Source of the DNA: Escherichia phage vB_Eco_mar004NP2 | Length of the DNA: 64,000 nt | Sequence record: OR896837.1 | Reading direction: 5' to 3' (one strand) | Shown here: piece by piece, positions 8,719-64,000 of the stretch | Position numbering within the stretch: the first letter of the stretch is position 1 | Layout: the number at the start of each line of letters is the position of its first letter | Position numbers and translations under genes: made by a program | Notes under the pieces: generated by a model | Databases searched by the model: none | The model's input: only the letters and a program-made list of their open reading frames with translations | What the model was told of the DNA's origin: nothing

Positions 8719-8726
8719 AAATGTAT

Positions 8727-8755: not shown

Positions 8756-8786
8756 ATTTATATAAATTAATGAGAGATACAAATAA

Positions 8787-9930: not shown

Positions 9931-9960
9931 ATTTATATAAATTGATAAGGAAGAAATTTG

Positions 9961-29301: not shown

Positions 29302-29307
29302 TATTTA

Positions 29308-34217: not shown

Positions 34218-34828
34218 AAACTTTCCCGTAAATTTAATGAGATGCCGGAATATGTTCCGTTATTATTTAATGTAGATCCGAAAGCATCACCATTCATGAG
34301 TTTTGTTCTAAATAGTATTCCGTTAAACACTGGTTTCTCAGCCCCAGTAGTAGTTATAAATAAATCAGGGTATAAGTTTATAGACCACGTATTGCCTGAT
34401 TTATTGAATGATGTTATTTTATATACTTTTGGATGGTTAGATAGCTTAAATAGATCCCCTGGTTTTGGAATACCTGTGAGAAGTCCTTTTGTATCCATAG
34501 TTATATTAGAACTCTTCTGTCCAGCAGGTATATTTACTAGGCTAGTATTACCTCTAACTCTAAAAGCTTCGTATTGTGGTAATATAACATCTATATAACC
34601 ACCAGTACTTTTGTATTCTAGAATAAATGCATCTAGAACACTATATTCATCTGGAAATAATTCTGGATAAGAAATATTTATACCCCAGTATTGAGCAGAT
34701 ACCTTAACTTCGTTAACTTTACCATTTGGTAACTCATCACGAATTACTGGGTCATTATCAATCAGGTTAACACTTTCGAATCCTAAGCCTGAAAGTTCTG
34801 GATTCGTGTATGGGTCTGGTAATCTCAT
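34214..34828 (-). CDS. distal tail protein (pb9-like)
   Basis: 204 aa, immediately downstream of the tape measure gene. Confidence 0.55.
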   Translation of the reverse strand: MRLPDPYTNPELSGLGFESVNLIDNDPVIRDELPNGKVNEVKVSAQYWGINISYPELFPDEYSVLDAFILEYKSTGGYIDVILPQYEAFRVRGNTSLVNIPAGQKSSNITMDTKGLLTGIPKPGDLFKLSNHPKVYKITSFNKSGNTWSINLYPDLFITTTGAEKPVFNGILFRTKLMNGDAFGSTLNNNGTYSGISLNLRESL

Positions 34829-34899
34829 AGTTAATTTCTCCTCTTTAATAACAATATTATAATAGTATTAGAAAATTTTATCAAGAAATTTTTATTTTT

Positions 34900-34931
34900 C
34901 CATAAAGAAAAGGAGGACTTTGAGTCCTCCT
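34900..34931 (-). terminator. rho-independent terminator after the tape measure gene
   Basis: Minus strand GGAGGACT-CAAA-GTCCTCC followed by TTTTCTTTATGGAAAAATAAAAA. Confidence 0.55.
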
Positions 34932-34937
34932 CCAGTT

Positions 34938-48662: not shown

Positions 48663-49979
48663 TTATTTACCACGGGAAATAGAGTAAATTCCATAGCGCA
48701 GTGCATCACAAAGGTGAGAGTTAGCATCATGACGTGGTTTTTCACGTGATAATTTTTCTTCACCTTCTTGGAAATCCCATTTATAGTTCTGCAACGCATG
48801 GATTAATGAGGAACATGAAACATCTACAATAATCTTGCCTTGTTGGAATAGCGCTTGCAAGCATGCTAGGCCATCTAGGACAGATTTTTTAGCAGGGGCT
48901 GATGCAATTTCATGTTCATAAGCTAAGTCCTGGCGGAACTGAGCTGCCGCGGAGTCAACAAAAATACGATCAACTTTATAACGATCTATACAGTGCTGAA
49001 TGTAAGCAGCATGCTGAGCTGTAGTTTTCTCCGCCTGCTGATACTCTTCTAATACATAGTAAGTATCCGTATCGTAATGATACTTAATAGTAAGAACTGC
49101 TGTAGGATCACGATAACCAACGTCGATACCAAGCAACGTTTCGAATGCTTCATCATCTTTAAAGAAATGACGCATACCCTTAAGGTCTTTAACATGGTCA
49201 ATAGCATTGAAAGTATCAAAAATCTGACCTTCAAATACAGAGAAGTCAGCTTCATATTCCTGGCGGAAGTAGTTTTTACTAACCGTACGACGTGCTTCTT
49301 CTATATCATTCAGGTCAGCACGAGGGTTATCACGATATGTACCATGAATAGATACCCAGTTAGGCAACGTATCATCAAATCCGTAGGCGTAAAACTCTTT
49401 AAACCAGTTACCTCCACGAGGTGTGGAAATAAATAGAGCCTTAGAATTAGGTTTATCTAGAGTAGGACGCAGCTGAACCCTGAAGGCATCACCACCCACA
49501 TCGGAAATTGCCGCCTCGTCAAAGATGATAAAATCATATGAACGTCCAACCGCGGAGTCAGCCTGAGCAGCGGAAGCTAGTTTAAACAGAGAACCATTAG
49601 CTAACTCAATTTCCTTATCTTTAGCGTTCTCACGTTCAGTTTGTAGGCCATATTTTTTAATAAGACCACGAATCTGAGACCATCCGATGTTGGCCAGTGA
49701 ATAGTTAGGAGCAACTACTAACACCTTCACATTAGGTTCCAGCAATTTTAGGAACCCAAGAGTATATGCGATGAAGGATTTACCTACACGGCGTGATACA
49801 CACGCCGTTACAAAACGATGTCTAGGATCCTCTAGAGCATTAATAATCGCTATTTGAGGACCATTAGGTGTAATACCTTCTTGTGCTAGTATTCCCGAAA
49901 CAGGTAGACGAAAGAAACGTTTATCTATTCCGAAATCAATAACATCTACTGTATTAACGTAAGGTCTTGATACTTCCAT
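48663..49979 (-). CDS. terminase large subunit
   Basis: 438 aa; N-terminal ATPase P-loop-like VSRRVGKSF, C-terminal nuclease-like acidic residues (FVDSAAA). Confidence 0.8.
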   Translation of the reverse strand: MEVSRPYVNTVDVIDFGIDKRFFRLPVSGILAQEGITPNGPQIAIINALEDPRHRFVTACVSRRVGKSFIAYTLGFLKLLEPNVKVLVVAPNYSLANIGWSQIRGLIKKYGLQTERENAKDKEIELANGSLFKLASAAQADSAVGRSYDFIIFDEAAISDVGGDAFRVQLRPTLDKPNSKALFISTPRGGNWFKEFYAYGFDDTLPNWVSIHGTYRDNPRADLNDIEEARRTVSKNYFRQEYEADFSVFEGQIFDTFNAIDHVKDLKGMRHFFKDDEAFETLLGIDVGYRDPTAVLTIKYHYDTDTYYVLEEYQQAEKTTAQHAAYIQHCIDRYKVDRIFVDSAAAQFRQDLAYEHEIASAPAKKSVLDGLACLQALFQQGKIIVDVSCSSLIHALQNYKWDFQEGEEKLSREKPRHDANSHLCDALRYGIYSISRGK

Positions 49980-50461
49980 TACTTCTTACCTCCAGTAGCT
50001 AGGGAAGTAATTAAGTCCATGTAGTTTTGATCCCCAGCTCCAGCAATAATATTATTCTGGATGTTGGTCTGGTTAGCTGGAGTACGGGCTGCTGCCTTCA
50101 CTTTCTCCAGTTCTACCATCATTTTCATTTCTTCCATTTTCATTTTATGTGCTTTCCAGAGAATATCCATAATATCTTGGTCAGAACCCATGCCAGTTTC
50201 TTCTAGTTCCTCTAGTTTACGCTTGATAACTTCATCCAGAACACCAAATAAACGATCTCTGTTACGGAAACCACTCTCCATAAAAATATCATTTAAGTAG
50301 TTCTTAACTTCACTACGATTCATAATATCTCGAAAAGCAATTTCGGACATCCCAAGACTACGTGCGGCAGAAGGCACATCGCTGCCACACTGTAAATATG
50401 CTTCAATTACATCCATCCCTTCAGGGGACATAAGATCTGGTACTAATACATCATTTGCCAT
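49979..50461 (-). CDS. putative terminase small subunit / DNA-binding protein
   Basis: 160 aa, HTH-like N-terminus, directly upstream of and coupled to the large terminase gene. Confidence 0.4.
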
Positions 50462-50471
50462 ATTTCCTCCT

Positions 50472-52229
50472 TTAGGTAAGGCGTTGAACTGTTACTCTTA
50501 ATCTCGGTAGGAAAACTGCACTACCTAAACTTACGTGCATAACTACCCCTAACTCTACATTTCCATTCCCCAGATTTTTAGCAGTATATATAAAACTATT
50601 TCTACTTAGGGCATTGTTAGGTGTGTACCTAAAAGCAGATGTAGTATGAAAAGGTACTAAATACCCTACTGGTAATGTTAAAATCTGGTGGAATATTGCA
50701 TCTCCATTACTATAGCTATATGCTCTTCTTCCTTGCACTTGAAACACACCGTTATTCCATGTATTAGCAGGAACACCTGCACAGTTAAGGTTACCTGATA
50801 TAACTTCAGTGGTAAGAATTACTGTAGCATTGCCACCCGGTATACCTAGCCCAATAGTTGATAAACCAACGTATCTATCCCCTGTTCCCGGGTAGCTGGG
50901 AGTAATATCATCCCCCATGTAAGAGCTACCTACATTTCCACCAAAAAGTCGTAATGGAACTGCTGATGGTCCCCAAACAACCCCGTGTTCATTACCGATA
51001 GTATTATCCCTAGAGTTTACATACCATTGCTTACCCGCTCCGAATTTGTAAATGCTAATTTGGGATTTAGCTCCACCATAGTCTACAGGAGACCATAATC
51101 CTCCATTACTAGACCCTACAAGTTCACACCTTGCCGTGGTATCCCCAAAAACCCCGGTATACGCTGCGTTATTTCCTATATACTCCATATCAGGACGGTA
51201 ACCTAGGTTACCAAAAGCATTCTGATTTATAAATTTATACCCGGTATTAGGGAGACTTACCCCTTTAATTATGAAATTAGAAGGAGATATAAGAATATCA
51301 GAACCAGTAAAGGGGTTGCCTGAAATACTCATTCCACCATTAGAGTACCTTAAATTAAGAACATACCAAATAACCTTAGTAGGGGTTATATTATACCAAT
51401 CCTGTAGTATTGTAGAGTCACCCGACTGGTTAGCTAAATTAGTAGTAGATCCCCTACAAACAAATCTGTTCCCACCGTCGTGGTACATAGTATTTACATT
51501 ACCTGGGAGCCCTTGTCTAACCCCACCGTATCCACGTATATTAGAGTTGCAAACATAAAACCAATCATGCCCTCTATGTGCTGCTCCTAGAGGCGACATC
51601 CATCCAGGATCCCAATAGTACGGGTTATTCCCATCTACAGGTACTGTGCTACTATTAGTAGGAAAACCTAATTGTGCAAAGGCTTCTGCAACAGTAACAC
51701 CTACAGGAGCTCCCGCACCAGGCCTAACTATCCCATGGTAGGTACTATGTAACGTAGTACCACCTGTACCACTCCTAGAGATAGATTCTTCGTGCCATAT
51801 CGATGGGTTATAATTATAAGTTCCAGATGCTAGACTATTACCAAATGCAAATCCACTGGTTTGAGAAACACTAGCAAAAGATCTAAAGGGGTCTGCTTGA
51901 GTGGCAACTATAGTTTGACCAACTTTACTCTGAGTACCATTAAGAAAAGCTCTGTGAGTACCATTAATCTCAATAGCAGTTAGTATAACTCTACCAGGAT
52001 CATTAGATTTAATATTTACTATATCAGGAGGCATCTGACATACGAAAAACCCATTCCCGGCATCACCTAATCCTGCCTCATAAGTACCCTCAACTAGAAC
52101 AAATGGCATATCACTATGAAAAATACTATTATTACTTGGACTATAGTGACGATTAATGTCACCCCCAGATTCAGTATTTAAAGATAGTACGGTCTTACCA
52201 TCGCTATACTTTCCAGCGAAAAAACCCAT
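50472..52229 (-). CDS. receptor-binding tail protein (pb5/Oad-like)
   Basis: 585-aa Gly/Asn/Thr-rich beta protein, divergent from the lipoprotein gene as in T5 oad-llp. Confidence 0.5.
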
Positions 52230-52254
52230 ATAATCTCCTATTATAAAAATGTAT

Positions 52255-52283
52255 TTGCTTTCATCCCTCTATTTTGCTATAAT
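52255..52283 (+). promoter_or_regulatory. sigma70-like promoter for the lipoprotein gene
   Basis: TTGCTT-17 nt-TATAAT followed by AAATTCATAAATTAGAAATGGAGAG. Confidence 0.55.
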
Positions 52284-52314
52284 AAATTCATAAATTAGAA
52301 ATGGAGAGATAAAT

Positions 52315-52581
52315 ATGAAAAAGTTTGTAATTGCACTAGTTGCCACAGTTATATTATCTGGTTGTGTACCTGCTCCCAAACCATTTTGTACGGGATTTGT
52401 AAAATCTTTTGGTGGTGCGGGAGAAGAATATTACGGTCTCAAGGTTCAAAAAGTTCGTATTAAGGGAGATCGCTTTCCAGTAGTACAGCTCCGTACTAAA
52501 TTTGGGTGGTGGGATCTCAGTCAGTTTGACCTTAAATATGGTGATTGTAAATTTAAACTAGAGCAATCTAATTACCTGTAA
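52315..52581 (+). CDS. llp: lytic-conversion lipoprotein (Llp-like), predicted receptor blocker
   Basis: Signal peptide with lipobox: MKKFVIALVATVILSGC; 88 aa; divergent from the receptor-binding protein gene. Confidence 0.6.
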   Translation: MKKFVIALVATVILSGCVPAPKPFCTGFVKSFGGAGEEYYGLKVQKVRIKGDRFPVVQLRTKFGWWDLSQFDLKYGDCKFKLEQSNYL

Positions 52582-52748
52582 TTAGTATAAAACAAAAAGA
52601 CATCCAAGTAAACTAAATTTTTTATTTCTTGGATGGTATATTGGCAGAAACCACTATGTAAGAAAAGTAGAAGTCCTTCTAGGAGTCCACAAGCACGGTT
52701 GGTTATGCACATATTTTAAAATATCACATTTATGGGAGCACGAAAGAT

Positions 52749-52877
52749 ATGTCAAACAAAAGAAATAATAGACGCGGAGAGGTGTATGAGAGTTGGATAA
52801 ATAGTTTTGGGTTCGGAACTCTCCTATTCTTTATTTTCGTAGGTTTTTGGTTAGCAGCTATGGCGGGGTGGATTTAA
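52749..52877 (+). CDS. small membrane protein (42 aa)
   Basis: ORF below the track cutoff, translated by hand: MSNKRNNRRGEVYESWINSFGFGTLLFFIFVGFWLAAMAGWI; one predicted TM helix. Confidence 0.3.
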   Translation: MSNKRNNRRGEVYESWINSFGFGTLLFFIFVGFWLAAMAGWI

Positions 52878-52984
52878 TGGAATGGGTAATTATTGCACTA
52901 TTAGGGATTGTGATTATTGGGCAATGTATTTTAGATAATCACTTAGCTAGAATTGAAACTTTATTGCTGGAGAAACGTAAATGA
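52877..52984 (+). CDS. small membrane protein (35 aa)
   Basis: Hand-translated MEWVIIALLGIVIIGQCILDNHLARIETLLLEKRK; start overlaps the previous stop (TAATG). Confidence 0.3.
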   Translation: MEWVIIALLGIVIIGQCILDNHLARIETLLLEKRK

Positions 52985-53175
52985 TGGAAGTGGCAGCTAC
53001 ATTAATAGTAATATTAATCTGGGCAATTTTCATTGTTTCTTATACCGCGTATGTTCGCCTAAAAACTCTAGAGGCCCAGGTAAAGCAGCAACAATTTGCA
53101 CTAGAAAAATTAGTAGAGCTTCAACGCTGTGATAGTACCCGTATTCTGCAAATTGAGAGGGAATTAGATGTTTAG
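52981..53175 (+). CDS. small membrane protein (64 aa)
   Basis: N-terminal TM helix (AATLIVILIWAIFIVSY) then coiled-coil-like tail; ATGA overlap with the previous ORF. Confidence 0.4.
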   Translation: MMEVAATLIVILIWAIFIVSYTAYVRLKTLEAQVKQQQFALEKLVELQRCDSTRILQIERELDV

Positions 53176-53413
53176 TATTGTAATTGCTTTTATTATCGGG
53201 ATACTCGCGGGAGTTTTCGGGACGACTGCGGCAATCAATAAGCATCGTAAATATATTGCGGGAGTGACGCGGGAGATTGCGGAAAGGGAGCGGAAGTTTG
53301 ACGAGAAACGTGCGGAGTTTGAGCGGGAGTGGTCGGATGGATCTCGGGCGTCGCGGAAGAGATTCCGTGAGTTCAGACCAGAATACAGGTTTGATGACCC
53401 TTCTATGCGCTAA
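53168..53413 (+). CDS. small membrane protein (81 aa)
   Basis: N-terminal TM helix (IVIAFIIGILAGVFG), highly charged C-terminus; 3' end lies in the 76-bp tandem repeat. Confidence 0.4.
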   Translation: MFSIVIAFIIGILAGVFGTTAAINKHRKYIAGVTREIAERERKFDEKRAEFEREWSDGSRASRKRFREFRPEYRFDDPSMR

Positions 53414-53519
53414 TTTGACTTTTGCCAATTTCTTTGGATTACGTGAGTTCAGACCAGAATACAGGTTTGATGACCCTTCTATGCGCTAATTTGACTTTTG
53501 CCAATTTCTTTGGATTACG
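53368..53519. repeat. 76-bp tandem direct duplication (2 copies)
   Basis: GTGAGTTCAGACCAGAATACAGGTTTGATGACCCTTCTATGCGCTAATTTGACTTTTGCCAATTTCTTTGGATTAC occurs at 53368-53443 and again at 53444-53519. Confidence 0.9.
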
Positions 53520-53641
53520 TACGCGTGGGTGTGTCCAGTGGCCCCCCAGATGAGAATGAGTCTCATTACCGCCCGGTACTTAGCAGGCTAATAGTCACGG
53601 CATGGTATCATTACACACCGTGACTATTTCAACTTTAATTG

Positions 53642-54376
53642 TTAGGCAACTTTTAATTTCTCAATATATTGTTGAGGACTGCAACTATATTCTGCGCGTT
53701 CTTCCTCGGTCATACCTTCCCAGCATAATTTTAAACGGTCAGCTAGGAATTGATAATCATTATCATCGTCGAGAGATTCATCAATAAAGGTTTCACCTAT
53801 CAATGCCACGCCGATTGATAGAATATCATTAACGGCTTGTGCGTCCAGCGTTTTAAATCCGTATGACGCTGCCGCTGATAGCACGCCTTTATGATCATCA
53901 ATCATTGTAAAATCAGCGTTAGGATATAACTGTTTAAATAATTCAAAATAATAAGATTTATATACTGCGTCTTTGCTGTGGTATATTTCGCTAACCTTAT
54001 CAGCTTTAAAATATTTGTGTAGTGTATCGCGGGAAAATACGCGGATATTACTATTACCACGACCGCGCAACCCTTGTTTACGCAAGAAATAATAGTCCGA
54101 CTTACTCATCAGTCGAGCGGTGCAAATAATGTTTAAAGTATTTGCGTCATTCATGCACTGGCGCATATATTCAACCAATGGCAATAAAGTATCTTGCATT
54201 ATTAAATGGTGTTTACACGCTTCATTTTTATACTTATTTAAATCTAAATTGCCCTCGCTATCAAAGCAGGGTGCTATACGATGGAAAGAATTAATGATAG
54301 TGCCGTCTAAATCCCAAATCATGACGCGGGAAATATGCGGGAAGCTGCGGGAAAGATTCATGATAGCTTTATTCAT
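53642..54376 (-). CDS. dmp: HAD-family 5'-deoxyribonucleotidase (Dmp-like pre-early protein)
   Basis: HAD motif I IWDLDGTII; 244 aa; next to the A1-like gene. Confidence 0.65.
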   Translation of the reverse strand: MNKAIMNLSRSFPHISRVMIWDLDGTIINSFHRIAPCFDSEGNLDLNKYKNEACKHHLIMQDTLLPLVEYMRQCMNDANTLNIICTARLMSKSDYYFLRKQGLRGRGNSNIRVFSRDTLHKYFKADKVSEIYHSKDAVYKSYYFELFKQLYPNADFTMIDDHKGVLSAAASYGFKTLDAQAVNDILSIGVALIGETFIDESLDDDNDYQFLADRLKLCWEGMTEEERAEYSCSPQQYIEKLKVA

Positions 54377-54455
54377 TTGTTACGTTCTCCATTTAAGGGA
54401 TTAGATTAATTCAGCATTACCCGCTATTTATAAGCGGGTAATAATAAATTAACTA

Positions 54456-54848
54456 TTAAAGACCATAAGCCAACGCATCGGCGATAAAACTAACATCCTC
54501 ACCTGATACATGGGAACGAATCCCCGCACAAGTATATACTTTTGCAGAAATCAATTGATCATCAAGGCAAGCGGGGCAAGGCGCGACAACTGCAAAGGCT
54601 AGACCGGATTTTACTGCGTCGATGATAATCGTTTCTTGTTTCGCCGTGTCAACATAAACGCCTTTTGCTTTAATATGGCTAGTTAGTTTGCCTTGCATAT
54701 ATGCAAATGTTGTAACCTGCAAAGCGTCATTGAAATCTAGCAATTCATCAATAACGTGCCCCGCCTCGACGTGGTAACGCTCACCATTAGAATAAACCAG
54801 AACAATTGAGGATTGAGCGCGGTCAAATGGAATATTTTGCTTTTTCAT
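54456..54848 (-). CDS. hypothetical pre-early protein
   Basis: 130 aa; GC-richer codon usage than the late genes. Confidence 0.45.
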   Translation of the reverse strand: MKKQNIPFDRAQSSIVLVYSNGERYHVEAGHVIDELLDFNDALQVTTFAYMQGKLTSHIKAKGVYVDTAKQETIIIDAVKSGLAFAVVAPCPACLDDQLISAKVYTCAGIRSHVSGEDVSFIADALAYGL

Positions 54849-54886
54849 GTTTATAAAACTCCAATTAGTTTAATAATGGATTTAAT

Positions 54887-55144
54887 TTATTTGATAATAA
54901 TCTGCATCTGGTACGGTGTTAATTCACCGTTTACGGGTAAATTATTATCGCTTAGCCACTCATAAAAAGCACCATCATCGTCAAAGGGTACAATATCATT
55001 ATCACTATAATCGACCGTAATAATCCCATCAGTATTAGTTTTGGCGGCTAGAATAGGCCCGAAGCTGTAAACTTTATCGGATTCCATTTCATCCGGTGAA
55101 ATAAATGCTTTTTCGTCTAGCGTTTTGGGTAATGTAACTTTCAT
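54887..55144 (-). CDS. hypothetical protein
   Basis: 85-aa acidic protein. Confidence 0.4.
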   Translation of the reverse strand: MKVTLPKTLDEKAFISPDEMESDKVYSFGPILAAKTNTDGIITVDYSDNDIVPFDDDGAFYEWLSDNNLPVNGELTPYQMQIIIK

Positions 55145-55200
55145 TCTAATTTAGCTCCTGTAATAGCGGCTATATTTCAAGCCGCTAGGGGATTAATTAT

Positions 55201-56865
55201 TTACGCAAAGAATTTACCGTTTTTAAAGTCAATCAAAGTGCGCTGACCGTTTGCATAGGTAATTAAATGCGTTTGCGTCCAGCTTGACGCGCCAACGTTG
55301 TAACCCATGTCCAGACTACCAGCTACGCCAGCGGTATACACGCCGCCATAAATGCTGGCGGTGTGAGTGTGTCCGGTGTTTAATTTGCCCAATTTCTTAA
55401 ATTGTTTAGGATTGCCACGGCTGCCGTTAATGCCGTTGTGACCGTGTACGCCGCATTCAATGCCTACAATCTTGAAAGATTGGTCAGTAGTTAGAAAAAT
55501 GGCGTTAAACTCACAACCTGCAACCTTGCGCAGCGCATAATCTAGCACGTTGAAAGTATCGTCTTTTTCTGCAATAGCTCCATAAATCGCGGCATTTAGG
55601 CGGTGATATAGTTCCGCGTTTGCTGGATCGTCTTTAATGTTAGCATTACGATCATCAAGCCAACGGGATAGCGCCAAATCGTGATTAGATTCAACAATGA
55701 TTGTTTGCGAGAAATCACGTTCCATTGATTCCAGCACGCGCCCCGTATCGATAAGATCATCTAATACCTTATCACGTCCGGCGGCGTATTGTTTTGCTAG
55801 GAATACACCGGATGCGCGGTTGTGATGGTTGCGTGATGTAAAATCATGCACGTCATGGATAAACTGATATTTAGGCTTGAGAATATCAAGCAAGCTATTT
55901 TCGCCAGCCCATGACGCAACGGCACAATCATCATCTAGTTTTTCTGCGTGAATATCGCCGTATTGCAAGCCTAAAACATGCCCCGATGTCTCATAGCATC
56001 CGGCAGGAGTAGCGCACACATTCAGATCATAAAATACCCCGCTTTCGTCCATCGTTTCGAGCTGGCGTACAAAAAATTCCCCGTCCTCGTCGAACTCGAC
56101 AATTAGCGCACCGAAGTTATGCAGCGCCTCGGCCTTTTGTCCTGCTTTCTGCTGAATGTAGTTTTTGAGCGTTGCCGTTCCGGTTGAGTACATACGGCGC
56201 ACTACTTCACCTTTTAAAGCTGGCACGCTTTCAGCGGTAATTTTAGCGTGACCAATTGCCAGACCTTCCAGATTAAGCGCCGTTGCAGTTTCAGCGAATC
56301 CAGAAAGCGGATAATCTGCGGTTGGCAAAACGTTAATTTCAGCCATGAAAGCAAAACGGCGGTTATTTAAAAACACGTTTTTATTGCAGATATATTTGTC
56401 AAATGCGGAATCATATTTTATTCCTTCTGCACCCTCGCCATTTTGAAAACCGTTTTTGTTATAAATAAACTTGCTAACCAGCAAATCAGCGCCGATATAT
56501 TTAGCAAATTGCTCCAATGAGGCTAAAAAGTTTTTATGCGGGAAAGTATTATTCTGAATCGACGTAATAATAAAGCGTTTACCCTGCTTTACTTCCCATT
56601 GCTCAACCGTGCTAGAAACAATCCCCGCCGCTTCTGGACGCTCATCGTTTTTAATGGCTTTTGCTACTTTCGCCGCTTTCGGTTTAGCTGGTTTATTTGC
56701 TTCCAACCAGTCGCAGATAGCGGTCGAGTGTTTTGTTGTATCGTAGACCGCTTTTGATATATCGTCGCAGACCTCCAGTTTAGTAGCGCGCAGACGTTTA
56801 CCATAGAAATTAAAGTCAGCGGCCATTTTCAGGATAACGGTTTGTTTTTCTGTGGAAATAATCAT
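55201..56865 (-). CDS. A1: A1-like pre-early metallophosphatase/nuclease
   Basis: 554 aa with calcineurin-like motifs (GDIHAE, ESNHD, GVHGHNG, GHTHT); size close to T5 A1 (about 556 aa as I recall). Confidence 0.65.
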   Translation of the reverse strand: MIISTEKQTVILKMAADFNFYGKRLRATKLEVCDDISKAVYDTTKHSTAICDWLEANKPAKPKAAKVAKAIKNDERPEAAGIVSSTVEQWEVKQGKRFIITSIQNNTFPHKNFLASLEQFAKYIGADLLVSKFIYNKNGFQNGEGAEGIKYDSAFDKYICNKNVFLNNRRFAFMAEINVLPTADYPLSGFAETATALNLEGLAIGHAKITAESVPALKGEVVRRMYSTGTATLKNYIQQKAGQKAEALHNFGALIVEFDEDGEFFVRQLETMDESGVFYDLNVCATPAGCYETSGHVLGLQYGDIHAEKLDDDCAVASWAGENSLLDILKPKYQFIHDVHDFTSRNHHNRASGVFLAKQYAAGRDKVLDDLIDTGRVLESMERDFSQTIIVESNHDLALSRWLDDRNANIKDDPANAELYHRLNAAIYGAIAEKDDTFNVLDYALRKVAGCEFNAIFLTTDQSFKIVGIECGVHGHNGINGSRGNPKQFKKLGKLNTGHTHTASIYGGVYTAGVAGSLDMGYNVGASSWTQTHLITYANGQRTLIDFKNGKFFA

Positions 56866-56962
56866 ATTAATAAAACTCCATTAAAGGGATTAAAAAACGT
56901 TTGTTATTGGCAAATATTGCCAAATATAACGCCTTGAATAATAGGCGTTATAATTTGCAACA

Positions 56963-57160
56963 TTAATTTAAAGGCATAAGGCTAGAACTAACACCACAAG
57001 CAATGGCGGCAATAAAACAAATCAGACCTAAACGCTTTGCCAATTTAGACTTACGTTTAAAATAATATGAGTCTAAATCATTTTGAAAATAAGCGAATAA
57101 TAACGAGGCCGCCATAATAAATAAGCCTAGAATTAACGATTCAGTGGGGTAAAAGATCAT
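56963..57160 (-). CDS. small membrane protein
   Basis: 65 aa with two hydrophobic helices. Confidence 0.4.
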   Translation of the reverse strand: MIFYPTESLILGLFIMAASLLFAYFQNDLDSYYFKRKSKLAKRLGLICFIAAIACGVSSSLMPLN

Positions 57161-57216
57161 TTTAAAACTCCAGTCAAAGAGAAATTATAGTGGGGAATAT
57201 TCCCCGCTAATTAAAT

Positions 57217-57624
57217 TTATTCACCTGCGGCCTGTTTTACTTCATCGGCAACGCCTAACAGTTGCGCTACGGCGTCCAGCGTTTCAAGTTTTGCACTTTC
57301 CAGACTTGCCAGACCGTCGGCGTCTTTAATAATGCCGGAATCAATAGCATGTTTAGCGATAACGCGTACATAGTGAGCTTTGCGGATTGAGCTACCGCCG
57401 CCAACTTTGCGAGGCTTATCGCTTTTCTGATACGCTTTTGCGCTGGTCAATTTTGATCGAACAGACACGGGAGAAGACGCGCCCACTGCTTTTGCAATCT
57501 CTTTTAAACCGTCGCTATTTGCGAAATCTAAACCGTTTTCATTAATTAACTGCTGGTACATAGAAACAGCTTTTTGAGTGTTTTCTTCATTCCAAGCAAA
57601 TTTTGCGGTTTTAACGTTAGTCAT
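57217..57624 (-). CDS. hypothetical pre-early protein (candidate A2-like by size and position, unverified)
   Basis: 135 aa, immediately upstream of the A1-like gene. Confidence 0.4.
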   Translation of the reverse strand: MTNVKTAKFAWNEENTQKAVSMYQQLINENGLDFANSDGLKEIAKAVGASSPVSVRSKLTSAKAYQKSDKPRKVGGGSSIRKAHYVRVIAKHAIDSGIIKDADGLASLESAKLETLDAVAQLLGVADEVKQAAGE

Positions 57625-57720
57625 GGTAAAAACTCCTATTAGTTTAATTTAAGGGATAAGATTAACATAATGTTAATCGTTATATCCCCCGAACTACTGG
57701 GGGATATAAAAGTAACACTA

Positions 57721-57972
57721 TTACGCTACAGCTTCCCATTTTTCGTTACGCTGTACAACCTTTACAACGTCGCCGGATTTAACGCGAACGCTAAAAACGG
57801 TTTTGCCGTTGTTACTACGTTCATTTTCAGCGTATACCGCGTCGATTGTATCAAACGGCATAAGCGCCGCACCTTTAATACGTTCGGCTTTTCCGGTTAG
57901 TTCATCCGTTTTAGTAACGAAAGGAATAAAAACGGATTGACCAATTTTAGGCGCGGTAATAACGTTTTGCAT
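57721..57972 (-). CDS. hypothetical protein
   Basis: 83-aa ORF with an RBS. Confidence 0.4.
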   Translation of the reverse strand: MQNVITAPKIGQSVFIPFVTKTDELTGKAERIKGAALMPFDTIDAVYAENERSNNGKTVFSVRVKSGDVVKVVQRNEKWEAVA

Positions 57973-58202
57973 AGTATAAACTCCAAGTTATTTAGGGGAT
58001 TGTTCCGCATTACCTGCTAGAAAGTAGCAGGTAATAAGCAACAATCCGCTCACCGCTATAATCAATTTAAGGAACTCCACGCAGGCTGCTATATCCCAGT
58101 TAGGGGGCAGGATGATTTATGGGGAATCACCTAACCGTCAAATTGTATCAAGTTATCGCTCTCATCGAACTGGGTACATCTTAAAGCCTATCGGCTAGGG
58201 TG

Positions 58203-58406
58203 TCAAACTGTTTTTTGCAGTTTTTTATGATTTTCTTTCAGGTCGATCATAATATTACGCCAGATCATTTCTAAACCCTGCTGGCGGCCTTTCTTGTACT
58301 GAGCAAATCGGTATTTTACGGATTGCTGGGCTATTGTCAACAATTTTTTAGTAGTACCATCTAATTTTTTAGCTGGTTTACCAGTGATCAATAAAGTTTG
58401 TTTCAT
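58203..58406 (-). CDS. hypothetical small basic protein
   Basis: 67 aa, Lys-rich. Confidence 0.35.
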   Translation of the reverse strand: MKQTLLITGKPAKKLDGTTKKLLTIAQQSVKYRFAQYKKGRQQGLEMIWRNIMIDLKENHKKLQKTV

Positions 58407-58863
58407 ATCTGCGATTCCTTATAATATAAGTTTACCGCCGATAGACTTTAAGATGTACCCAATTTTTAAAGAGCGCGGCGGTAAACTTCCCGCCGTGTAG
58501 TTCGTCATTGCCGCCCTACGAGATAAATAATAGCAAATAGTAAAAATGGCGCAACCTTATTTTTGTAAAGAAACGTAAAGACAAAATGCCACCGGACACC
58601 GTGCGGCGACCTGGGCGCGGCGCACTAAAATTAAAGGAAACGGGCGCGCGAATACCATAAAACCCAGCAGGTTGGCAAGTAATTTTTTCATTTATATTTG
58701 CCTTGCCCTACTTGACAAAAACTAAAAAGCTCGTGGTAGCGATAAACGAGGGTAGGCAATGCAATGGCATGGCTAAAAACTTCATCGCGTTATAGGGCGT
58801 TTTAGGCGCATTCTAGCCTTGTTGATAACTTATCCCCAAAAGCAAAAATGAAATTTTCCTAGT

Positions 58864-58895
58864 TATCCACTTGACTTTTATTTTCCAGTGGATAA
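58864..58895. promoter_or_regulatory. inverted pair of DnaA-box-like sites
   Basis: TTATCCACT (58864-58872) and AGTGGATAA (58887-58895) form a palindrome around TTGACTTTTATTTTCC. Confidence 0.4.
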
Positions 58896-59156
58896 CTACT
58901 TATTTTATGAAATAAATTAATTGACTTTTATTTGTTAGTATGCATCGGAAAGATAGCAGACTAATAGTTGCTAGGATGATAATCATGCTGGTGGATTGTA
59001 ATAGCCGGAACTGTTAGCAGACTATTAATCACGGAAAATCTCATTAGCCAACTAACTATTTCATGATATATAATATACTTATAAATTAATGAGAAATAAT
59101 AATTATAAGAAATCGTAACCGATAGAAATAATAACTATAAGAAACTATCGTCCTAA

Positions 59157-59286
59157 GTGAGAACCACTATCGTTTAAGTTATCCACAAGTTTATTAACAG
59201 CACAAAATGATTTGACACGATAGGCGACGATATAAGGACTTATCCACAGACTTATCCACATGTTATCCTACTGTATAAATATACAG
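59157..59286. repeat. left inverted repeat with three DnaA boxes
   Basis: TTATCCACA at 59179, 59240 and 59252; ends in palindrome CTGTATAAATATACAG; about 80% reverse-complement match to 62758-62884. Confidence 0.7.
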
Positions 59287-59552
59287 GGTAAAAAGGTAGT
59301 GTTAACAACTGCAATCAATTTTAGGCGGCCTAAAACGCTTTCTAACGAGCTAAATGCGGTGGGGTAATATTAAAGTGAAGCCTTCACCCGTCGCCCTGGT
59401 GGCTTCACCGTGTTTTGCTCTTTACTGTACCGCTGCGCGGTTAGCATAAAACTAGGCGCTAGGCAAGGAAAATAAAAAGGTAAAATAATATTTGCCTATG
59501 CTAGAAAATTGCCTTTATCATTCACTCACCGATTAACGAGGGAGGCCAACAA

Positions 59553-60314
59553 ATGAGGCTATATAAACCAGGTAACGCAACCGTCTTAAAAGGTGCGCTG
59601 CGTAACCTGCTGGACGGTAGCAGAACAACCAGCATTAAACATTTTATTAACAAGGCTGAAACTATTCACCAAAACTTTTTTGGTGATTTCGATGCCTATG
59701 ATATGAATAGTTTTCTACCGTTATATAAACAAGGGGCAACGCTTGTTTTATATAATCAAGATTATCAATTGCTCACTAGTCGAGGGCCGGATACTGATTT
59801 CATAATCGTAAAAGGTAGCACAGTAAAAGCCTATGATACTGGGGCAGGCTTAGAAGTTTTTTCAATAGAAAATTATGAAGCCAACCCCAATGATCTTTAT
59901 GATATTGAAAATTTTCTTGATTCATTTTGGCGTTATTTATCAGTTGGCTGGAATCGGTCGGATTGTGACGGGTATCGTTTCGCGGCTGTAATGGCCTTTG
60001 ATGATAACGGTAATTTTTTGTTACCGTCGGAAGTGTACCCTTATGTATATGAGGGGGATATTGAAAGCGCGGGCTTTTCTTTCTGGAAGGAGGAAGATCA
60101 GCCTATTGACAACACGGAAAAACATGCTGTAAATTCTAACACTCAAAGCGTTAACACTCAAACTACTGAAAACAAAGGAAATAATACCATGACCAAGATC
60201 GCTAATATCGTTGCCGCTAATAAATCCGCTGTTGTAAATGCTGCAAAACTGGAAGCTGGCAAAATTGCATTGACTCAAATCACGAAAGTAGCGGCTAAAA
60301 ACCGCCGTTTATGA
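59553..60314 (+). CDS. hypothetical pre-early protein
   Basis: 253 aa; RBS GAGGGAGG. Confidence 0.5.
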   Translation: MRLYKPGNATVLKGALRNLLDGSRTTSIKHFINKAETIHQNFFGDFDAYDMNSFLPLYKQGATLVLYNQDYQLLTSRGPDTDFIIVKGSTVKAYDTGAGLEVFSIENYEANPNDLYDIENFLDSFWRYLSVGWNRSDCDGYRFAAVMAFDDNGNFLLPSEVYPYVYEGDIESAGFSFWKEEDQPIDNTEKHAVNSNTQSVNTQTTENKGNNTMTKIANIVAANKSAVVNAAKLEAGKIALTQITKVAAKNRRL

Positions 60315-60544
60315 TTAAAGGTTATATTGATACGCCGATTGGTCGGGTAGTTATTGCTAACCTGCTGAGCGTAGCGGTTGACCAGTACGCCCCGAATAAC
60401 CAGAAAGCGAAAGCGGTAGCAGGCGCAGCTATGGAAGCGGCAATGCTAGAAATGGTGCAAAGTTTTAACATCGCTGAAATGATTGATGAAATGGTGAAAG
60501 GTATCGATATTTCTACTTTTACCACTAGCACCGAAAGCGAGTAA
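60311..60544 (+). CDS. hypothetical protein
   Basis: 77 aa; ATGA coupling. Confidence 0.45.
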   Translation: MIKGYIDTPIGRVVIANLLSVAVDQYAPNNQKAKAVAGAAMEAAMLEMVQSFNIAEMIDEMVKGIDISTFTTSTESE

Positions 60545-60609
60545 TAATATTTAGTGGGGATTGTTTCCCCGCTTTACTATTCCCTTATTAATTAATAGGA
60601 GGCTAATAA

Positions 60610-61104
60610 ATGGCTGAGGAAAAATATGGGTTTTCGCTAGGGGAAGTGAGCAAGGCTAAACATGATATGATCATTTTGGTCGATTGTCATACTGGCTATT
60701 GCGGTGAAGGGAATACTGAGGAATATTTTGTTCCTGCTGGTACGGATCTCGACGCTTTCGCTCATGAAATGGCTGTTGATAATGCTTCTCGTTTTGGTAG
60801 CGATGGCTATGAAGATGAGGAAACGGGCGAATGGTATGAGAATGATAATGTATATGCAAGCCTTTATCATTATCAATTAAGTAAATCCGGCACATATGTA
60901 AACGGCGGCGATCCTATTAATTCCGTCATGAAATTAATTATTAAATATGGTGGCGCTGAAATAATCGGAAATAAAGCGGTAATATACGCAAACCGACTAA
61001 AACAGCTTGTTTATATCCCTGATAGTACCCGATGGGATGAATACGCTGTTTTGCATGACGAATTGAAACGATGTTTCAATATTGAAACATTACAAGTAGT
61101 TTAA
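60610..61104 (+). CDS. hypothetical protein
   Basis: 164 aa; RBS AGGAGG. Confidence 0.5.
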   Translation: MAEEKYGFSLGEVSKAKHDMIILVDCHTGYCGEGNTEEYFVPAGTDLDAFAHEMAVDNASRFGSDGYEDEETGEWYENDNVYASLYHYQLSKSGTYVNGGDPINSVMKLIIKYGGAEIIGNKAVIYANRLKQLVYIPDSTRWDEYAVLHDELKRCFNIETLQVV

Positions 61105-61210
61105 TGTAAAGTTTTGTAAAGGTCGCCATAATTGGTGGCCTTTTTTGTTATAATGCCTTTACACCGTTTAAGGACGGTTGAAAATTTTCCCAAAAATTTG
61201 GAGGCTTAAA

Positions 61211-61441
61211 ATGGTTGCTTATTCTTCTGCTAGTCATCTGTTTACCGCGCAAGGCTGGGTATCTAATCATGCTGTCATCTATGAAATGGTGCAGGAGTTC
61301 GGTATTGTTAAAACCTATAATACCATTCAGGAACTATATAACGCCGATAAAATCGATCAGCAAACGGCTGGCTTTTTGCTGGATACCCTGAAGGCGGAAC
61401 ATTGCACCAAAAAACAAGCTGCAAAAATTGTTTTAATGTAA
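61211..61441 (+). CDS. hypothetical protein
   Basis: 76 aa from ATG 61211 with GGAGG RBS (track start 61178 is TTG). Confidence 0.4.
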   Translation: MVAYSSASHLFTAQGWVSNHAVIYEMVQEFGIVKTYNTIQELYNADKIDQQTAGFLLDTLKAEHCTKKQAAKIVLM

Positions 61442-61491
61442 TTAATAACGGGGGATATAATATCCCCCGATAACTAGGAGGATATCACAAA

Positions 61492-61641
61492 TGGTTATTT
61501 TTCGAGCTATTCTAGCAGGTATCTTGGGCGCTATTTTATCACTTTTTGCAATAGCTTTCGGCGTTCACGCGGTTATTATTGGTGCGGGTATCGCTGTATT
61601 TTCTTATCTGCTGGGCTGCATGACTAGTAAAGGAGAATAAA
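61492..61641 (+). CDS. small membrane protein (49 aa)
   Basis: Hand-translated MVIFRAILAGILGAILSLFAIAFGVHAVIIGAGIAVFSYLLGCMTSKGE; RBS AGGAGG. Confidence 0.35.
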
Positions 61642-61642
61642 A

Positions 61643-61855
61643 ATGATTCGTAACGTTTCCCTTGCACGTTCAAAAGGCTTTAAGCTGGTGGACGTTAACA
61701 CGTTCGAGCGGGAAGATTGTAAAATTGAATATGTAGCGCGAAATAAAAACGTCTTCCGTGTTACCGAGAAAAAATTCGATAAACGGGGCAACGTGATAGC
61801 TGAAACAGTTAAACATTTTGCCACCTTTTACGCTGCGTTTCGGGGAGTGCTATAA
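61643..61855 (+). CDS. hypothetical protein
   Basis: 70 aa; RBS AAAGGAGA. Confidence 0.4.
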   Translation: MIRNVSLARSKGFKLVDVNTFEREDCKIEYVARNKNVFRVTEKKFDKRGNVIAETVKHFATFYAAFRGVL

Positions 61856-61856
61856 A

Positions 61857-62201
61857 ATGGTAATTTATGAAGGCAATCGTTTTGTTGCTAATTGCCGTCC
61901 GGCATTACTAGCAAACTACTTAAATCAGCTTTCCCCAGCTTATAAGGGCGTTATTAATATTTATGAAGGCAAGGCGCATTATAAAATCAATGCGGTCGTT
62001 GCCCGTGAACTAGCGTTTCAATTTTTGACCTTTGCATCTTGCGACGTTCAGGTCATGGGTGAGGCGTTAATTGCAGAAAATGAAGATGATTTTATTAATA
62101 TTTTTCGCAAGATATGCACCGAGCGCCTGATAATGAAAGGCGCGTATATTCAATCCACTGCGGATAGTATTGAAACAGCGTTTCGAAAGGTGGCGCAATG
62201 A
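61857..62201 (+). CDS. hypothetical protein
   Basis: ATG 61857 directly after the previous stop (track start 61818 is further upstream). Confidence 0.4.
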   Translation: MVIYEGNRFVANCRPALLANYLNQLSPAYKGVINIYEGKAHYKINAVVARELAFQFLTFASCDVQVMGEALIAENEDDFINIFRKICTERLIMKGAYIQSTADSIETAFRKVAQ

Positions 62202-62301
62202 GATTATATATTTTCGCGGGTAATGTTGAGGCTGCAAATGATTCCGCTGGTGGCGATAACGTTCGCCACTATTGGCAAAAATATATTTACTAGGGGTTAT
62301 T

Positions 62302-62496
62302 ATGAACAATAAAATTGTTGTAACCAAAATCAGTACAATGGTTGATGTTTTTTACGTGCCCGATACGCCGGAGAATCGGCAAGCGGTCGAGCGTGGCGAA
62401 TATGATAGCGTTATTTATGATGCCGATGGTTATTATCAGCATTTGGTGGATTCCTACGGGGAGGAGGAAAAGATCACGCATCGACTACCAGACTAA
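62302..62496 (+). CDS. hypothetical protein
   Basis: 64 aa from ATG 62302 (MNNKIVV...). Confidence 0.3.
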   Translation: MNNKIVVTKISTMVDVFYVPDTPENRQAVERGEYDSVIYDADGYYQHLVDSYGEEEKITHRLPD

Positions 62497-62757
62497 TAAT
62501 AACGGGGCGCAACTACCAGGGAGTGCCCCCAATTCTCAAATGAGAGTGATTCTCATTTAACCGCGCCCGCGATGGTTAGCCTGCTAATGATTAAGGTGTT
62601 ACATGTCGCCTTGTGTGATCGTTAGCAAGCTAACTAATTTTTAAGCCTCCTCCAATTTTGCCCTTGTTTTAGTATCCCCATCAAAATTAAACGCGTTAGA
62701 ATGCGATTCAGGACGTTTTAGGCCTATATTAGAATTATTCACTACATAGGAATATTG

Positions 62758-62884
62758 TATATTTATACAGTAGGATAAGCTGTGGATAAGTCTGTTAATA
62801 ACGCCTCAAAATGGCTAGGATTCTGTCAAATCAAATCGTGCTGTTAATAAGTCTGTGGATAACTTAAATAACAGTGTTTCTCAC
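62758..62884. repeat. right inverted repeat with DnaA boxes
   Basis: TGTGGATAA at 62781 and 62854; reverse complement aligns with 59157-59286. Confidence 0.7.
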
Positions 62885-63060
62885 TTCCATTCTTAAATGA
62901 GAATCATTATCATTCGCATTCCACTGTCTAACCGATAATCATTTCCTTTCTTAAATGAGAATCATTTCACTTTTTGAATAGTTCTCATTTCACTTCTTAA
63001 ATGAGAATCATTATCATTCGCATTCCACTTCTTAAATGATAATGATTCTCATTCAAAGTC
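62885..63060. repeat. array of TCTTAAATGAGAATCATT-type repeats
   Basis: At least four direct or inverted copies of AAATGAGAATCATT / AATGATTCTCATT; related palindromes at 53547-53568 and 62537-62560. Confidence 0.7.
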
Positions 63061-63078
63061 GCAGGGCAATTGCCCTGC
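63061..63078. repeat. perfect 18-bp palindrome
   Basis: GCAGGGCAATTGCCCTGC. Confidence 0.9.
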
Positions 63079-63084
63079 GCTTTT

Positions 63085-63685
63085 GTGCAAATCCGACATA
63101 TGCCACCATGGATTACGCGCGGGCGTGTATGTGCGAATCCGACAATTTTTGGTAGTGTGCAAATCCGACCCCAAAAATTTTTATAGTGTGCAAATCCGAC
63201 AATGAATTTTCCCAAAAACTCCAGCAATCACGAACTGCGTTCGAATCCTGTGGGATATGTGCAAATCCGACACGGTTTTTCTAGGATTAAGATGTGCGAA
63301 TCCGACAAGATTTTTGTGACTTCGATTGGAGGGTGTGTGATTGTATAGGTTTGAGGAGAAGATGAGAGAGCGAGAGAAAATAAGGGGAGAAACTGGAGGA
63401 GCAGCATGGGTGGCGTGCAACGCCTGATTTGCTGCGTTTTTGGGAAGAGTTGAGAAGATTTGGGTTAATTTGAGATTAGTGGAGATAAAGTAAAATTTTA
63501 TTTGCTAAAGGTGGCAAAATAGCTTGACAAGTGAAAATTTTTTGTGACCCTAAAAACTCAGGCAATCATGGGCCTTCGGCCCGAAATAATGCTGCCATTT
63601 TCAGGAGATTATGTATTCATGAAAACTTAGGCGTTTGTGCAAATCCGACCATAAATTTCTAGAAACACAATGTGCAAATCCGACA
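63085..63685. repeat. dispersed array of GTGC(A/G)AATCCGAC(A/C) 14-mers
   Basis: Eight copies, at 63085, 63131, 63157, 63188, 63259, 63294, 63637 and 63672, all in the same orientation, irregular spacing, no ORF. Confidence 0.85.
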
Positions 63686-64000
63686 GTAATTTCTGGAAAT
63701 GTGTTTTCAAAAAATGTCTCCTAGAAATAACCGCCCTCCCTATAACCGCCCTGTATTAAACCGGCCTAGGATATGTAACGTTGGAGAGAAACTGCCCTAG
63801 AGTGTAAGAGTTTTCCTAGAAACTTAGGAGTCTAGAAGAAAGTGTTGTGCCATCCTAGCAGATGAGCGGCAACAGGTGTATCATCTTGAATGTAAATTAT
63901 ATGGTCAAAAAGTTTTACTTTTATTTTAAATATAAGATCCCCCAGGGTTCTCATATAGAGCTTTGCCCCCGCCAGAAGGTCTCGTGATGTTTCTAGTAAT

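Follow-up and report, generated by a model that had tools for sequence, protein, structure and literature searches.

We analyzed a 64-kb stretch of the genome of Escherichia phage vB_Eco_mar004NP2 (record OR896837.1), one strand of a Tequintavirus (T5-like; Demerecviridae) genome, which is called the window below. Judged by homology, its part from ~53.6 to 63.35/63.55 kb is almost certainly a single copy of the T5-type long terminal repeat, that is, the block of first-step-transfer (FST) DNA with the pre-early genes and the injection-stop-signal (iss) region. The element itself is textbook T5 biology and already known. Its make-up is distinct in that it carries a host-like oligonucleotide and codon signature, and is not an island of high guanine-plus-cytosine (GC) content. 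The genes and features of the region are given below, with CpG and GpC contents as observed/expected ratios (o/e).

52315..52581, plus strand: llp-type lipoprotein (receptor-blocking) gene, with a Pfam lipoprotein attachment site and a receptor-blocking / Cor protein annotation in relatives
53168..53413, plus strand: small membrane-protein gene at the T5.162 position, CpG o/e 1.73, GC 49.6%, with a weak LapA-domain match
53361..53512, no strand: tandem duplication of 76 bp in 2.1 copies (98-99% identical), immediately ahead of the left end of the repeat
53626..63343, no strand: predicted terminal repeat / FST block in its minimal extent, by homology to the pork27 termini
53642..54376, minus strand: dmp, deoxynucleoside-5'-monophosphatase, 93% amino acid (aa) identity to T5.001 over 244 aa
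54456..54848, minus strand: T5.002 homologue, 94% identity
54887..55144, minus strand: 85-aa open reading frame (ORF) that stands where T5 has T5.003 and matches no T5 protein; annotated in pork27 and SPLA5b as hypothetical
55201..56865, minus strand: A1, 95% identity to T5.004
56963..57160, minus strand: T5.005 homologue (membrane protein), 98% identity
57217..57624, minus strand: A2 DNA-binding protein, 98% identity to T5.006
57721..57972, minus strand: T5.007 homologue, 90% identity
58203..58406, minus strand: hdi (T5.008) homologue, 97% identity
58407..59552, no strand: non-coding region separating the two divergent pre-early operons, CpG o/e 1.29, GpC o/e 1.60, only 2 AGAG
59553..60544, plus strand: T5.011 homologue (DUF7566), as two overlapping ORFs, 59,553-60,314 and 60,311-60,544
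60610..61104, plus strand: 164-aa ORF without T5 counterpart, present in pork27 and SPLA5b
61,211-61,441, plus strand: T5.012 homologue (blastp against T5)
61,491-61,640, plus strand: T5.013 homologue (blastp against T5)
61,643-61,855, plus strand: T5.014 homologue (blastp against T5)
61,857-62,201, plus strand: T5.015 homologue (blastp against T5)
62,272-62,496, plus strand: T5.017 homologue (blastp against T5)
62488..63479, no strand: homologue of the T5 iss region, by mapping of that region
63365..63376, plus strand: first AGAG cluster, GAGAGAGCGAGAG, at the right compositional boundary, after the AGAG-poor zone

The block is preceded by genes of the late arm, encoding the terminase, the receptor-binding protein pb5/oad and the lipoprotein Llp; the llp-type gene is the final late-arm landmark and lies outside the compositional island. 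Within the island, the ORFs compared by blastp with the T5 proteins are T5 orthologues in T5 order and orientation, namely dmp, A1, A2, and nine more. The dmp-like and A1-like genes named in the first-pass annotation of this DNA are thus borne out, at 93% and 95% identity to T5, respectively. A Pfam search of the window proteins gave no match for dmp, A1, or A2, whose identity comes from the T5 comparison instead. A1 is responsible for host-DNA degradation and is required for second-step transfer, and an A1 relative is held by 1,134 phage records.

The nearest relatives of a 10-kb query are the Salmonella phages SPLA5b and PMBT29 (99.6-99.8% identity; all Tequintavirus), and the window copy is 99.8% identical to deposited genomes. 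The DNA of the block is present once in the closest records (106.9-107.6 kb) and twice in relatives of 116-121 kb, where the two copies bear the annotation of left and right terminal repeat. For pork27, the first base of the left repeat as annotated aligns to window 53,626, and the final base of the right repeat aligns to window 63,343. The DNA at window 63,344-63,944 corresponds to pork27 9,968-10,570, which follows the left repeat of that phage, in an unbroken alignment, while window 49,600-53,442 aligns to the DNA preceding the pork27 right repeat (pb5/oad and llp). The single copy, continuous with both pork27 flanks, argues that the record is an assembly in which two repeat copies were collapsed. 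As annotated, the repeats in T5 and SIA3lw correspond to window ~53,534-63,550, and T5, pork27, SIA3lw, and saus176N all have a terminal-repeat annotation on the homologous DNA. The alignment of the pork27, T5, and SIA3lw termini, together with the flanks, supports the first-pass proposal that the window crosses a copy of the terminal repeat, which probably sits about 1 kb further right than the 52,600-62,600 given there. That the block is duplicated at both genome ends and injected first in mar004NP2 would follow from orthology with T5-type phages.

The compositional contrast of the block is strong in its short words and slight in plain GC content. The segment 52,600-62,600 has 40.4% GC compared with 38.75% in the remainder, an excess of 1.65 points, and it ranks seventh among 540 sliding 10-kb windows, where every higher window overlaps the block. 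Thus the proposed GC-richer island stands insofar as the highest 10-kb GC values fall here, but GC excess is the weakest aspect of the contrast, and peaks of 1-2 kb outside the block are equally high (42.8% at 10-12 kb, 43.4% at 44-45 kb). The words GCG, CCG, CGC, and CGG are three times denser in the island than elsewhere (60.4 versus 20.2 per kb). CpG o/e is 1.1-1.7 in every kb of 53-63 kb and 0.35-1.03 elsewhere in the window; for the whole block it is 1.35 versus 0.70 in the rest, and GpC is 1.54 versus 1.11. The enrichment of GCG, CCG, and CGC codons, suspected in the first reading, proved real and strong both by word density and by in-frame counts: GCG makes up 28% of alanine codons in the island versus 9% in the rest, CCG 27% versus 14% of proline codons, and CGC 31% versus 7% of arginine codons. 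GC content at third codon positions (GC3) rises from 29.2% to 39.3%, with first and second positions unchanged.

A maximum-likelihood fit of two change-points to CpG density places the CpG island at 53,197-63,323 (support 53,002-53,218 and 62,508-63,492; log-likelihood gain 102), with 55.3 CpG per kb inside and 26.2 per kb outside. The island was first described as starting just after the lipoprotein gene and running to about 62.5 kb, and neither end holds. The fitted start lies ~0.6 kb later, since the 400 bp at 52,600-53,000, next to the lipoprotein gene, are poor in CpG and rich in AT (at 52,501-53,000, GC is 0.33-0.37 with 2-6 CpG per 250 bp), and the island extends ~0.8 kb beyond 62.5 kb, into non-coding DNA. 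It begins ~0.4 kb before the repeat because a CpG-rich gene resembling T5.162 adjoins the repeat. Its Karlin dinucleotide distance (delta*) from the rest is 203 (176 in T5), compared with 29-58 for other 10-kb chunks of the window, and tetranucleotide usage, as base-composition-normalized log o/e, does not correlate between island and rest (r = -0.07). The small difference in overall GC, matched by short peaks elsewhere, would fit an apparent GC-richness that is local noise, with no real island. This reading is ruled out by the likelihood gain, the dinucleotide distance, and the replication of the contrast in six other phages, and we give it practically no weight.

The signature is a property of the DNA, beyond codons alone. 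The codon AGA and its complement TCT are depleted in all three frames of the block, and non-coding DNA has a CpG o/e of 1.03-1.29 inside the repeat versus 0.62-0.67 directly outside it, in the window and in T5 (Fisher p 0.06 and 0.04, the two comparisons not being independent).

The direction of the shift is toward the host. Relative to a reference of one 50-kb stretch of E. coli DNA, the dinucleotides CG, GC, and AA/TT go up in the block and AG/CT, GA/TC, and AC/GT go down, in each case E. coli-ward. Tetranucleotide log o/e correlates with E. coli at r = 0.57 for the island, compared with 0.04 for the rest and -0.11 to 0.18 for size-matched chunks. Relative synonymous codon usage (RSCU) gives r = 0.64 for the island and r = 0.09 for the rest, and 51 of the 59 codons shift toward E. 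coli (shift correlation r = 0.87). The codon shift is not merely a GC3 effect, because it is separately present within the G/C-ending codons (r = 0.82) and within the A/T-ending ones (r = 0.79). The codons AGA, AGG, and ATA together number 10.6 per 1000 in the island versus 31.9 in the rest (p = 8e-10); AGA falls to 6% of arginine codons from 27%, and ATA to 10% of isoleucine codons from 23%.

These codon data raise the possibility of pure translational selection, in which the pre-early genes are tuned to host tRNAs, the phage tRNAs come later, and everything else is secondary. A load of the rarest E. coli codons (AGA, ATA) that is three times lower in the island speaks for it, as do the reduced use of NNA codons cognate to phage tRNAs with U34 (225 per 1000 in the island versus 257 in the rest, p = 0.001) and the position of the tRNA genes outside the repeat, at 28-41 kb in T5. 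However, the host-tRNA adaptation index does not differ significantly (0.308 in the island versus 0.290 in the rest, p = 0.1), and codons pairing by Watson-Crick rules with T5-type tRNAs are as frequent in the island as in the rest (361 versus 365 per 1000); tRNA supply is therefore not the whole story. Further, non-coding DNA and out-of-frame positions are shifted as well, and the block resembles average E. coli genes and their normalized tetranucleotides, not a high-expression codon set. We regard translational selection as the sole cause as improbable.

The pre-early block was examined in seven Demerecviridae, and the contrast is present in all of them. For the relatives with the following values, CpG o/e is given for the block versus the rest.

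T5: 1.31 versus 0.76; switch near 10.0-10.2 kb, annotated repeat end 10,219
Epseptimavirus saus176N: 1.39 versus 0.78; change-point 8,830, annotated repeat end 8,717
Pantoea phage AAS21 (A1 66% identical): 1.23 versus 0.75; change-points match the pre-early block
Proteus phage 1 (A1 42% identical): 1.10 versus 0.67; change-points match the pre-early block
Vibrio phage phi 3 (A1 34% identical): 1.00 versus 0.69; annotated repeat 1-7,769

On the sampled sequence, the blocks occupy 27,851-37,650 in Proteus phage 1, 27,201-37,800 in Pantoea AAS21, and 1-7,769 in Vibrio phi 3. Outside the FST block, tetranucleotide signatures are alike across genera whatever the host (E. coli, Pantoea, Proteus, or Vibrio; r = 0.47-0.92). 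Compared with E. coli DNA, this non-repeat Demerecviridae signature shows either no correlation or a negative one. The FST signatures correlate among genera at r = 0.39-0.94, and those of FST versus rest mostly at -0.18 to 0.32, with 0.54 for the Proteus phage FST against its own rest. Compared with E. coli, the FST signature gives 0.57-0.61 in phages of E. coli, Salmonella, and Pantoea, and 0.13-0.15 in those of Proteus and Vibrio.

The host dependence was examined reciprocally, with about 75 Vibrionaceae chromosomal loci fetched through thyA as the Vibrio host sample. The FST block of Vibrio phi 3 resembles Vibrio DNA (r = 0.52, delta* 75) more than E. coli DNA (0.15, 134), whereas that of the window resembles E. 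coli (r = 0.57, delta* 115) more than Vibrio (0.36, 173). The bootstrap interaction of 0.57 [0.41, 0.74] indicates that the signature follows the host. In particular, the CpG and GpC values are 1.00 and 1.24 for the phi 3 repeat, compared with 0.99 and 1.24 for Vibrio DNA.

The same data bear on a foreign origin, that is, capture of the pre-early module from a host-adapted (e.g., temperate) element whose composition has stayed unameliorated. A delta* of ~200 with uncorrelated tetranucleotides fits the criterion of parametric detectors of horizontal transfer, and A1 relatives occur in Caulobacter, Rhizobium, Flavobacterium, and Xanthomonas phages. Against this, all Demerecviridae lineages examined show the contrast, even at 34% A1 identity; the block is therefore an old core element, in which a foreign signature evolving neutrally should have been lost. 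The window carries no integrase, tRNA, or other mobility marks: it has no tRNA genes in its 64 kb, and the Pfam search of its proteins gave no integrase-like match. Host tracking would moreover need repeated re-acquisition in each lineage. A foreign origin thus appears distinctly unlikely, more so than translational selection alone.

Besides its general signature, the block lacks a particular short word. The repeat contains 7 AGAG/CTCT sites, compared with 33.9 expected from a dinucleotide model and 22.6 from a trinucleotide model. No other tetramer is as under-represented in the block as AGAG or falls as far below its level in E. coli; the density of AGAG is 0.72 per kb in the FST block, 8.7 per kb in the remainder of the window (459 observed, 492 expected), and 4.5 per kb in E. 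coli. The sites left in 53,626-63,343 are at 53,772, 57,178, 57,499, 58,159, 58,470, 59,418, and 62,543. All of them are RAGAG (7 versus ~35 scaled from the rest), and the repeat has no CAGAG or TAGAG, where ~18 and ~31, respectively, would be expected on the same scaling. GAGA, of the same composition as AGAG, is normal in the repeat (31 observed, 35 expected). The AGAG-poor zone stops 22 bp past the repeat end defined by pork27.

Host-likeness as the source of this scarcity is ruled out by the 4.5 sites per kb in E. coli and by the deficit being largest against E. coli. Codon usage does not suffice either: AGA and TCT are rarer in the block, but the trinucleotide expectation is still 22.6 versus 7 observed, and GAGA is normal. 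The depletion is seen to a varying degree in T5, pork27, SIA3lw, SPLA5b, and saus176N, and is not absolute, with 7-14 sites remaining. Relatives with >90% identical A1 retain 6-19 AGAG sites, mostly AAGAG at conserved positions; T5, with 19 sites, retains 4 YAGAG. There is little or no depletion in the Pantoea, Proteus, and Vibrio relatives (74 observed and 62 expected in Pantoea AAS21). These phages have other words that are avoided in the FST block only, namely GGAC in Pantoea AAS21 (13 observed, 41.9 expected), CCGG (0 versus 16.2; rest 16 versus 28.6) and GCAGC (0 versus 16.5) in Proteus phage 1, and CCAGG in Vibrio phi 3 (0 versus 10.1; rest 51 versus 58).

Other site counts can be mentioned here. 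GAATTC, AAGCTT, CTGCAG, GGTACC, and GGATCC each number 0 in the repeat. In window 1-53,000, several 6-bp palindromes are strongly depleted compared with a Markov model (GATATC 2 versus 20.7, AAGCTT 7 versus 28.4, GGTACC 2 versus 11.7), as is CCAAGG (1 versus 11.8), so that site avoidance is in part a genome-wide trait. Proteus phage 1 has no GGCC in its entire sampled sequence. GCGC/CGCG is seven times denser in the repeat, which might have linked it to the nick sites, but both words are at their dinucleotide expectation (49 versus 50.6 and 36 versus 44.3); their density reflects CpG and GpC richness and is no separate signal.

The boundaries of the signature bear on yet another explanation, namely that it is a by-product of terminal redundancy: the repeat copies recombine in each generation, and biased gene conversion or copy-specific repair shifts their composition. 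In its favor, non-coding DNA and all codon frames are shifted too, and in the window, T5, and saus176N the boundaries are no more than a few hundred bp from the annotated repeat ends. However, there is no plain AT-to-GC drive, since AA/TT goes up, CC/GG is nearly flat, and the GC gain is 1.3-1.6 points; A/T-ending codon choices also move host-ward, and the reciprocal comparison shows the signature tracking the host. In T5, the CpG drop (~10,000) and the return of AGAG (9,930 onward) occur inside the annotated repeat, which ends at 10,219, whereas the homologous spot in pork27 is at or beyond the repeat end, at a resolution of about 200 bp. For instance, the homologue of the GAGAGAGCGAGAG cluster lies inside the annotated repeat of T5 (10,033-10,041) and outside that of pork27 (9,989-9,997). 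Finally, the CpG-rich gene of the T5.162 type is outside the repeat. We consider it improbable that redundancy produced the signature.

In T5, the FST DNA is alone in the cell for the first minutes, and its genes are read by the unmodified host machinery. We suggest that selection in this naive host is the probable, if by no means certain, explanation of the block, its host-like signature, and its motif purge taken together. On its own, compatibility with the naive host has roughly an even chance of being the cause of the composition. The FST block would have to be transcribed, translated, and survive in an unmodified host at a time when the 20-odd phage tRNA genes, the anti-restriction functions, and the remaining genome would still be outside the cell. 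Selection would then keep the block host-compatible, with few AGA, ATA, and AGG codons and host-type synonymous choices, and would purge short motifs open to nucleases active in the first minutes (AGAG/CTCT here, others in other genera). The remaining ~90% of the genome would enter a cell already taken over and could keep the family-typical, CpG-poor, AT-ending signature independent of the host. Naive-host compatibility would lead one to expect host-like codons, the three-fold lower load of AGA, AGG, and ATA, host tracking, and lineage-specific avoidance confined to the FST block. Selection, rather than mutation or ancestry, is the cause that we infer for these observations, and the agents acting in it are proposed on the same basis.

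Several observations weigh against selection in the naive host as the cause. The weak difference in tRNA adaptation and the equal use of phage-tRNA-cognate codons count here as well, and the shift of non-coding repeat DNA and the loss of AGA in all frames are unpredicted by codon selection. The block overshoots the CpG and GpC levels of E. coli (1.35 and 1.54 versus 1.15 and 1.31), and it does not avoid CTAG, which is present at 3.5 per kb compared with 0.24 per kb in E. coli. The CpG-rich gene resembling T5.162 (53,168-53,413) is outside the repeat and never in FST DNA. Host tracking covers two host genera, with Vibrio species as proxies for V. cholerae, and RSCU fails to separate E. coli from Vibrio as the host.

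The motif purge recalls the classical restriction-site avoidance in the first-exposed DNA of T5, reportedly described by Davison and Brunel in 1979. T5-like phages are restricted only via sites inside the FST region, as described in a BF23 study (PMC10644984). CAGAG is the site of the Salmonella type III enzyme StyLTI (PMC3874151), and it accounts for just ~1/5 of the lacking AGAG sites; our search found no enzyme matching the 4-mer AGAG/CTCT. Davison hypothesized that A1 is a nuclease cutting at specific sites which FST DNA lacks, leaving the motif unnamed (bioRxiv 10.1101/866236), and according to Annor et al. 2026, A1 is both required and sufficient for the degradation of host DNA. AGAG is a candidate A1-linked word worth testing. 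As a conserved A1 recognition site it is weakened by the range of 6-19 sites at >90% A1 identity and by the lack of depletion in Pantoea AAS21, and the variable count among near-identical A1 favors a host-side agent over A1. We give only a slim chance to the combined reading that the first-injected DNA is built to pass as host-type and lacks the words targeted by a nuclease activity of the first minutes, these words being AGAG/CTCT, above all YAGAG, in Tequintavirus and others in other genera. Candidates for the early nuclease activity behind such a purge are A1, through its role in breaking down the host chromosome, and a defence system widespread among hosts.

Chi octamers (GCTGGTGG) are found in the repeat at 58,987 (in the non-coding region), 61,684, and 62,246, all on the top strand, where at most 0.22 per strand are expected; this density equals that of E. 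coli. Homologous and further Chi, all co-oriented, are also found in relatives, with 2 in T5, 2 in pork27, 2 in SIA3lw, and 4 in saus176N. For RecBCD, Chi in this orientation would be active upon entry from the right genome end, at the right repeat, and inactive for the left, first-injected end.

The right part of the block carries the features of the T5 iss region. Families of repeats lie at 62,524-63,056 and 63,079-63,313, and a GC-rich hairpin at 63,060-63,079, ending in CTGCGC, adjoins the homologue of the T5 nick, the 7.9% position of which maps to 63,080/63,081. Two DnaA-box-like TTATCCACA motifs occur at 59,240-59,260, and inverted DnaA boxes TTATCCACA at 62,779-62,863. These TTATCCACA motifs are carried by a 131-nt inverted repeat (arms 59,155-59,285 and 62,756-62,886, 79% complementary), which brackets the entire right-hand pre-early operon.

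At the left edge, the gene at 53168..53413 is likely a T5.162 homologue, judging by its position, size, and composition. T5.162 itself (T5 111,245-111,490), directly left of the T5 right repeat, has a CpG o/e of 1.92, and genes of this type are the most CpG-rich of the region, yet lie outside the first-injected DNA. The 76-bp tandem duplication overlaps the end of this ORF and is present as one copy in the 99.8%-identical SPLA5b. The T5.011 homologue is a single coding sequence of 331 aa in SPLA5b and of 336 aa in T5, and two ORFs in the window and pork27; the split could be a frameshift, a sequencing error, or real. The GC skew of the window flips sign at ~25 kb and again at ~52 kb (window ~25,000 and ~52,300), which goes with the coding-strand switches among the early (+) genes, the late (-) genes, and the repeat.

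Our literature search found no description of the compositional contrast or of AGAG avoidance; Davison 2015 and Wang et al. 2005 may have noted the contrast. The within-genome contrast and the AGAG avoidance may thus be new. In these phages, ~8% of the genome is host-like and follows the host, and ~92% is family-like whatever the host, so that T5-like phages make up a natural experiment on composition, with exposure to a naive host set against the phage's own machinery. Two practical points follow: host prediction from k-mers in Demerecviridae should use the repeat rather than the whole genome, and parametric detectors of horizontal transfer will falsely flag the repeat. Further, the escape of FST DNA from A1-dependent degradation and its escape from RecBCD are named as open problems in the T5 papers of 2020 and 2026. 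As candidates for these two problems, we raise the almost complete lack of AGAG/CTCT and the Chi octamers with their common orientation. If A1 were an activity that spares AGAG-free DNA, this would answer how T5 destroys the host DNA and spares its own.

Among known systems, the closest is the T5 repeat (T5 1-10,219), which has the same gene order, mostly 90-98% aa identity, and two divergent operons. Common to both are dmp, T5.002, A1, T5.005, A2, T5.007, and hdi, with T5.011-.017 on the opposite strand, as well as the iss-type repeats and DnaA boxes, the nick-adjacent hairpin, and the placement between llp/pb5 and the early genes. Unlike T5, the window block is without the homing endonuclease hegG, has the 85-aa ORF for T5.003 and the extra 164-aa ORF, has T5.011 split in two ORFs and a 76-bp tandem duplication at its left edge, and avoids AGAG more strongly (7 versus 19 sites).

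With the restriction-site avoidance of T5 and BF23, the AGAG scarcity shares a depletion confined to the FST DNA and absent from the rest and a motif that varies with lineage and host. The StyLTI site CAGAG is absent from the window repeat, but the dominant signal is a 4-mer, AGAG/CTCT, without a matched enzyme. The AGAG scarcity also resembles what Davison hypothesized for A1, AGAG being a word common in the host and in the rest of the phage and nearly gone from the FST DNA, but the depletion is incomplete, varies at >90% identical A1, and is absent in Pantoea AAS21.

A horizontally acquired island would be similar in its atypical composition (delta* 203, tetranucleotide r = -0.07), but the block has no patchy distribution, being found in all seven Demerecviridae, and has no tRNA genes and no integrase-like Pfam match. 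Finally, as in phages with host-like k-mer and codon usage, the block resembles its host in dinucleotides, tetranucleotides, and synonymous codons. The difference is that here the likeness is limited to only ~8% of the genome, with a sharp boundary, whereas the other ~90% has no host resemblance (r = 0.04) and carries a signature shared by the family (up to 0.92).

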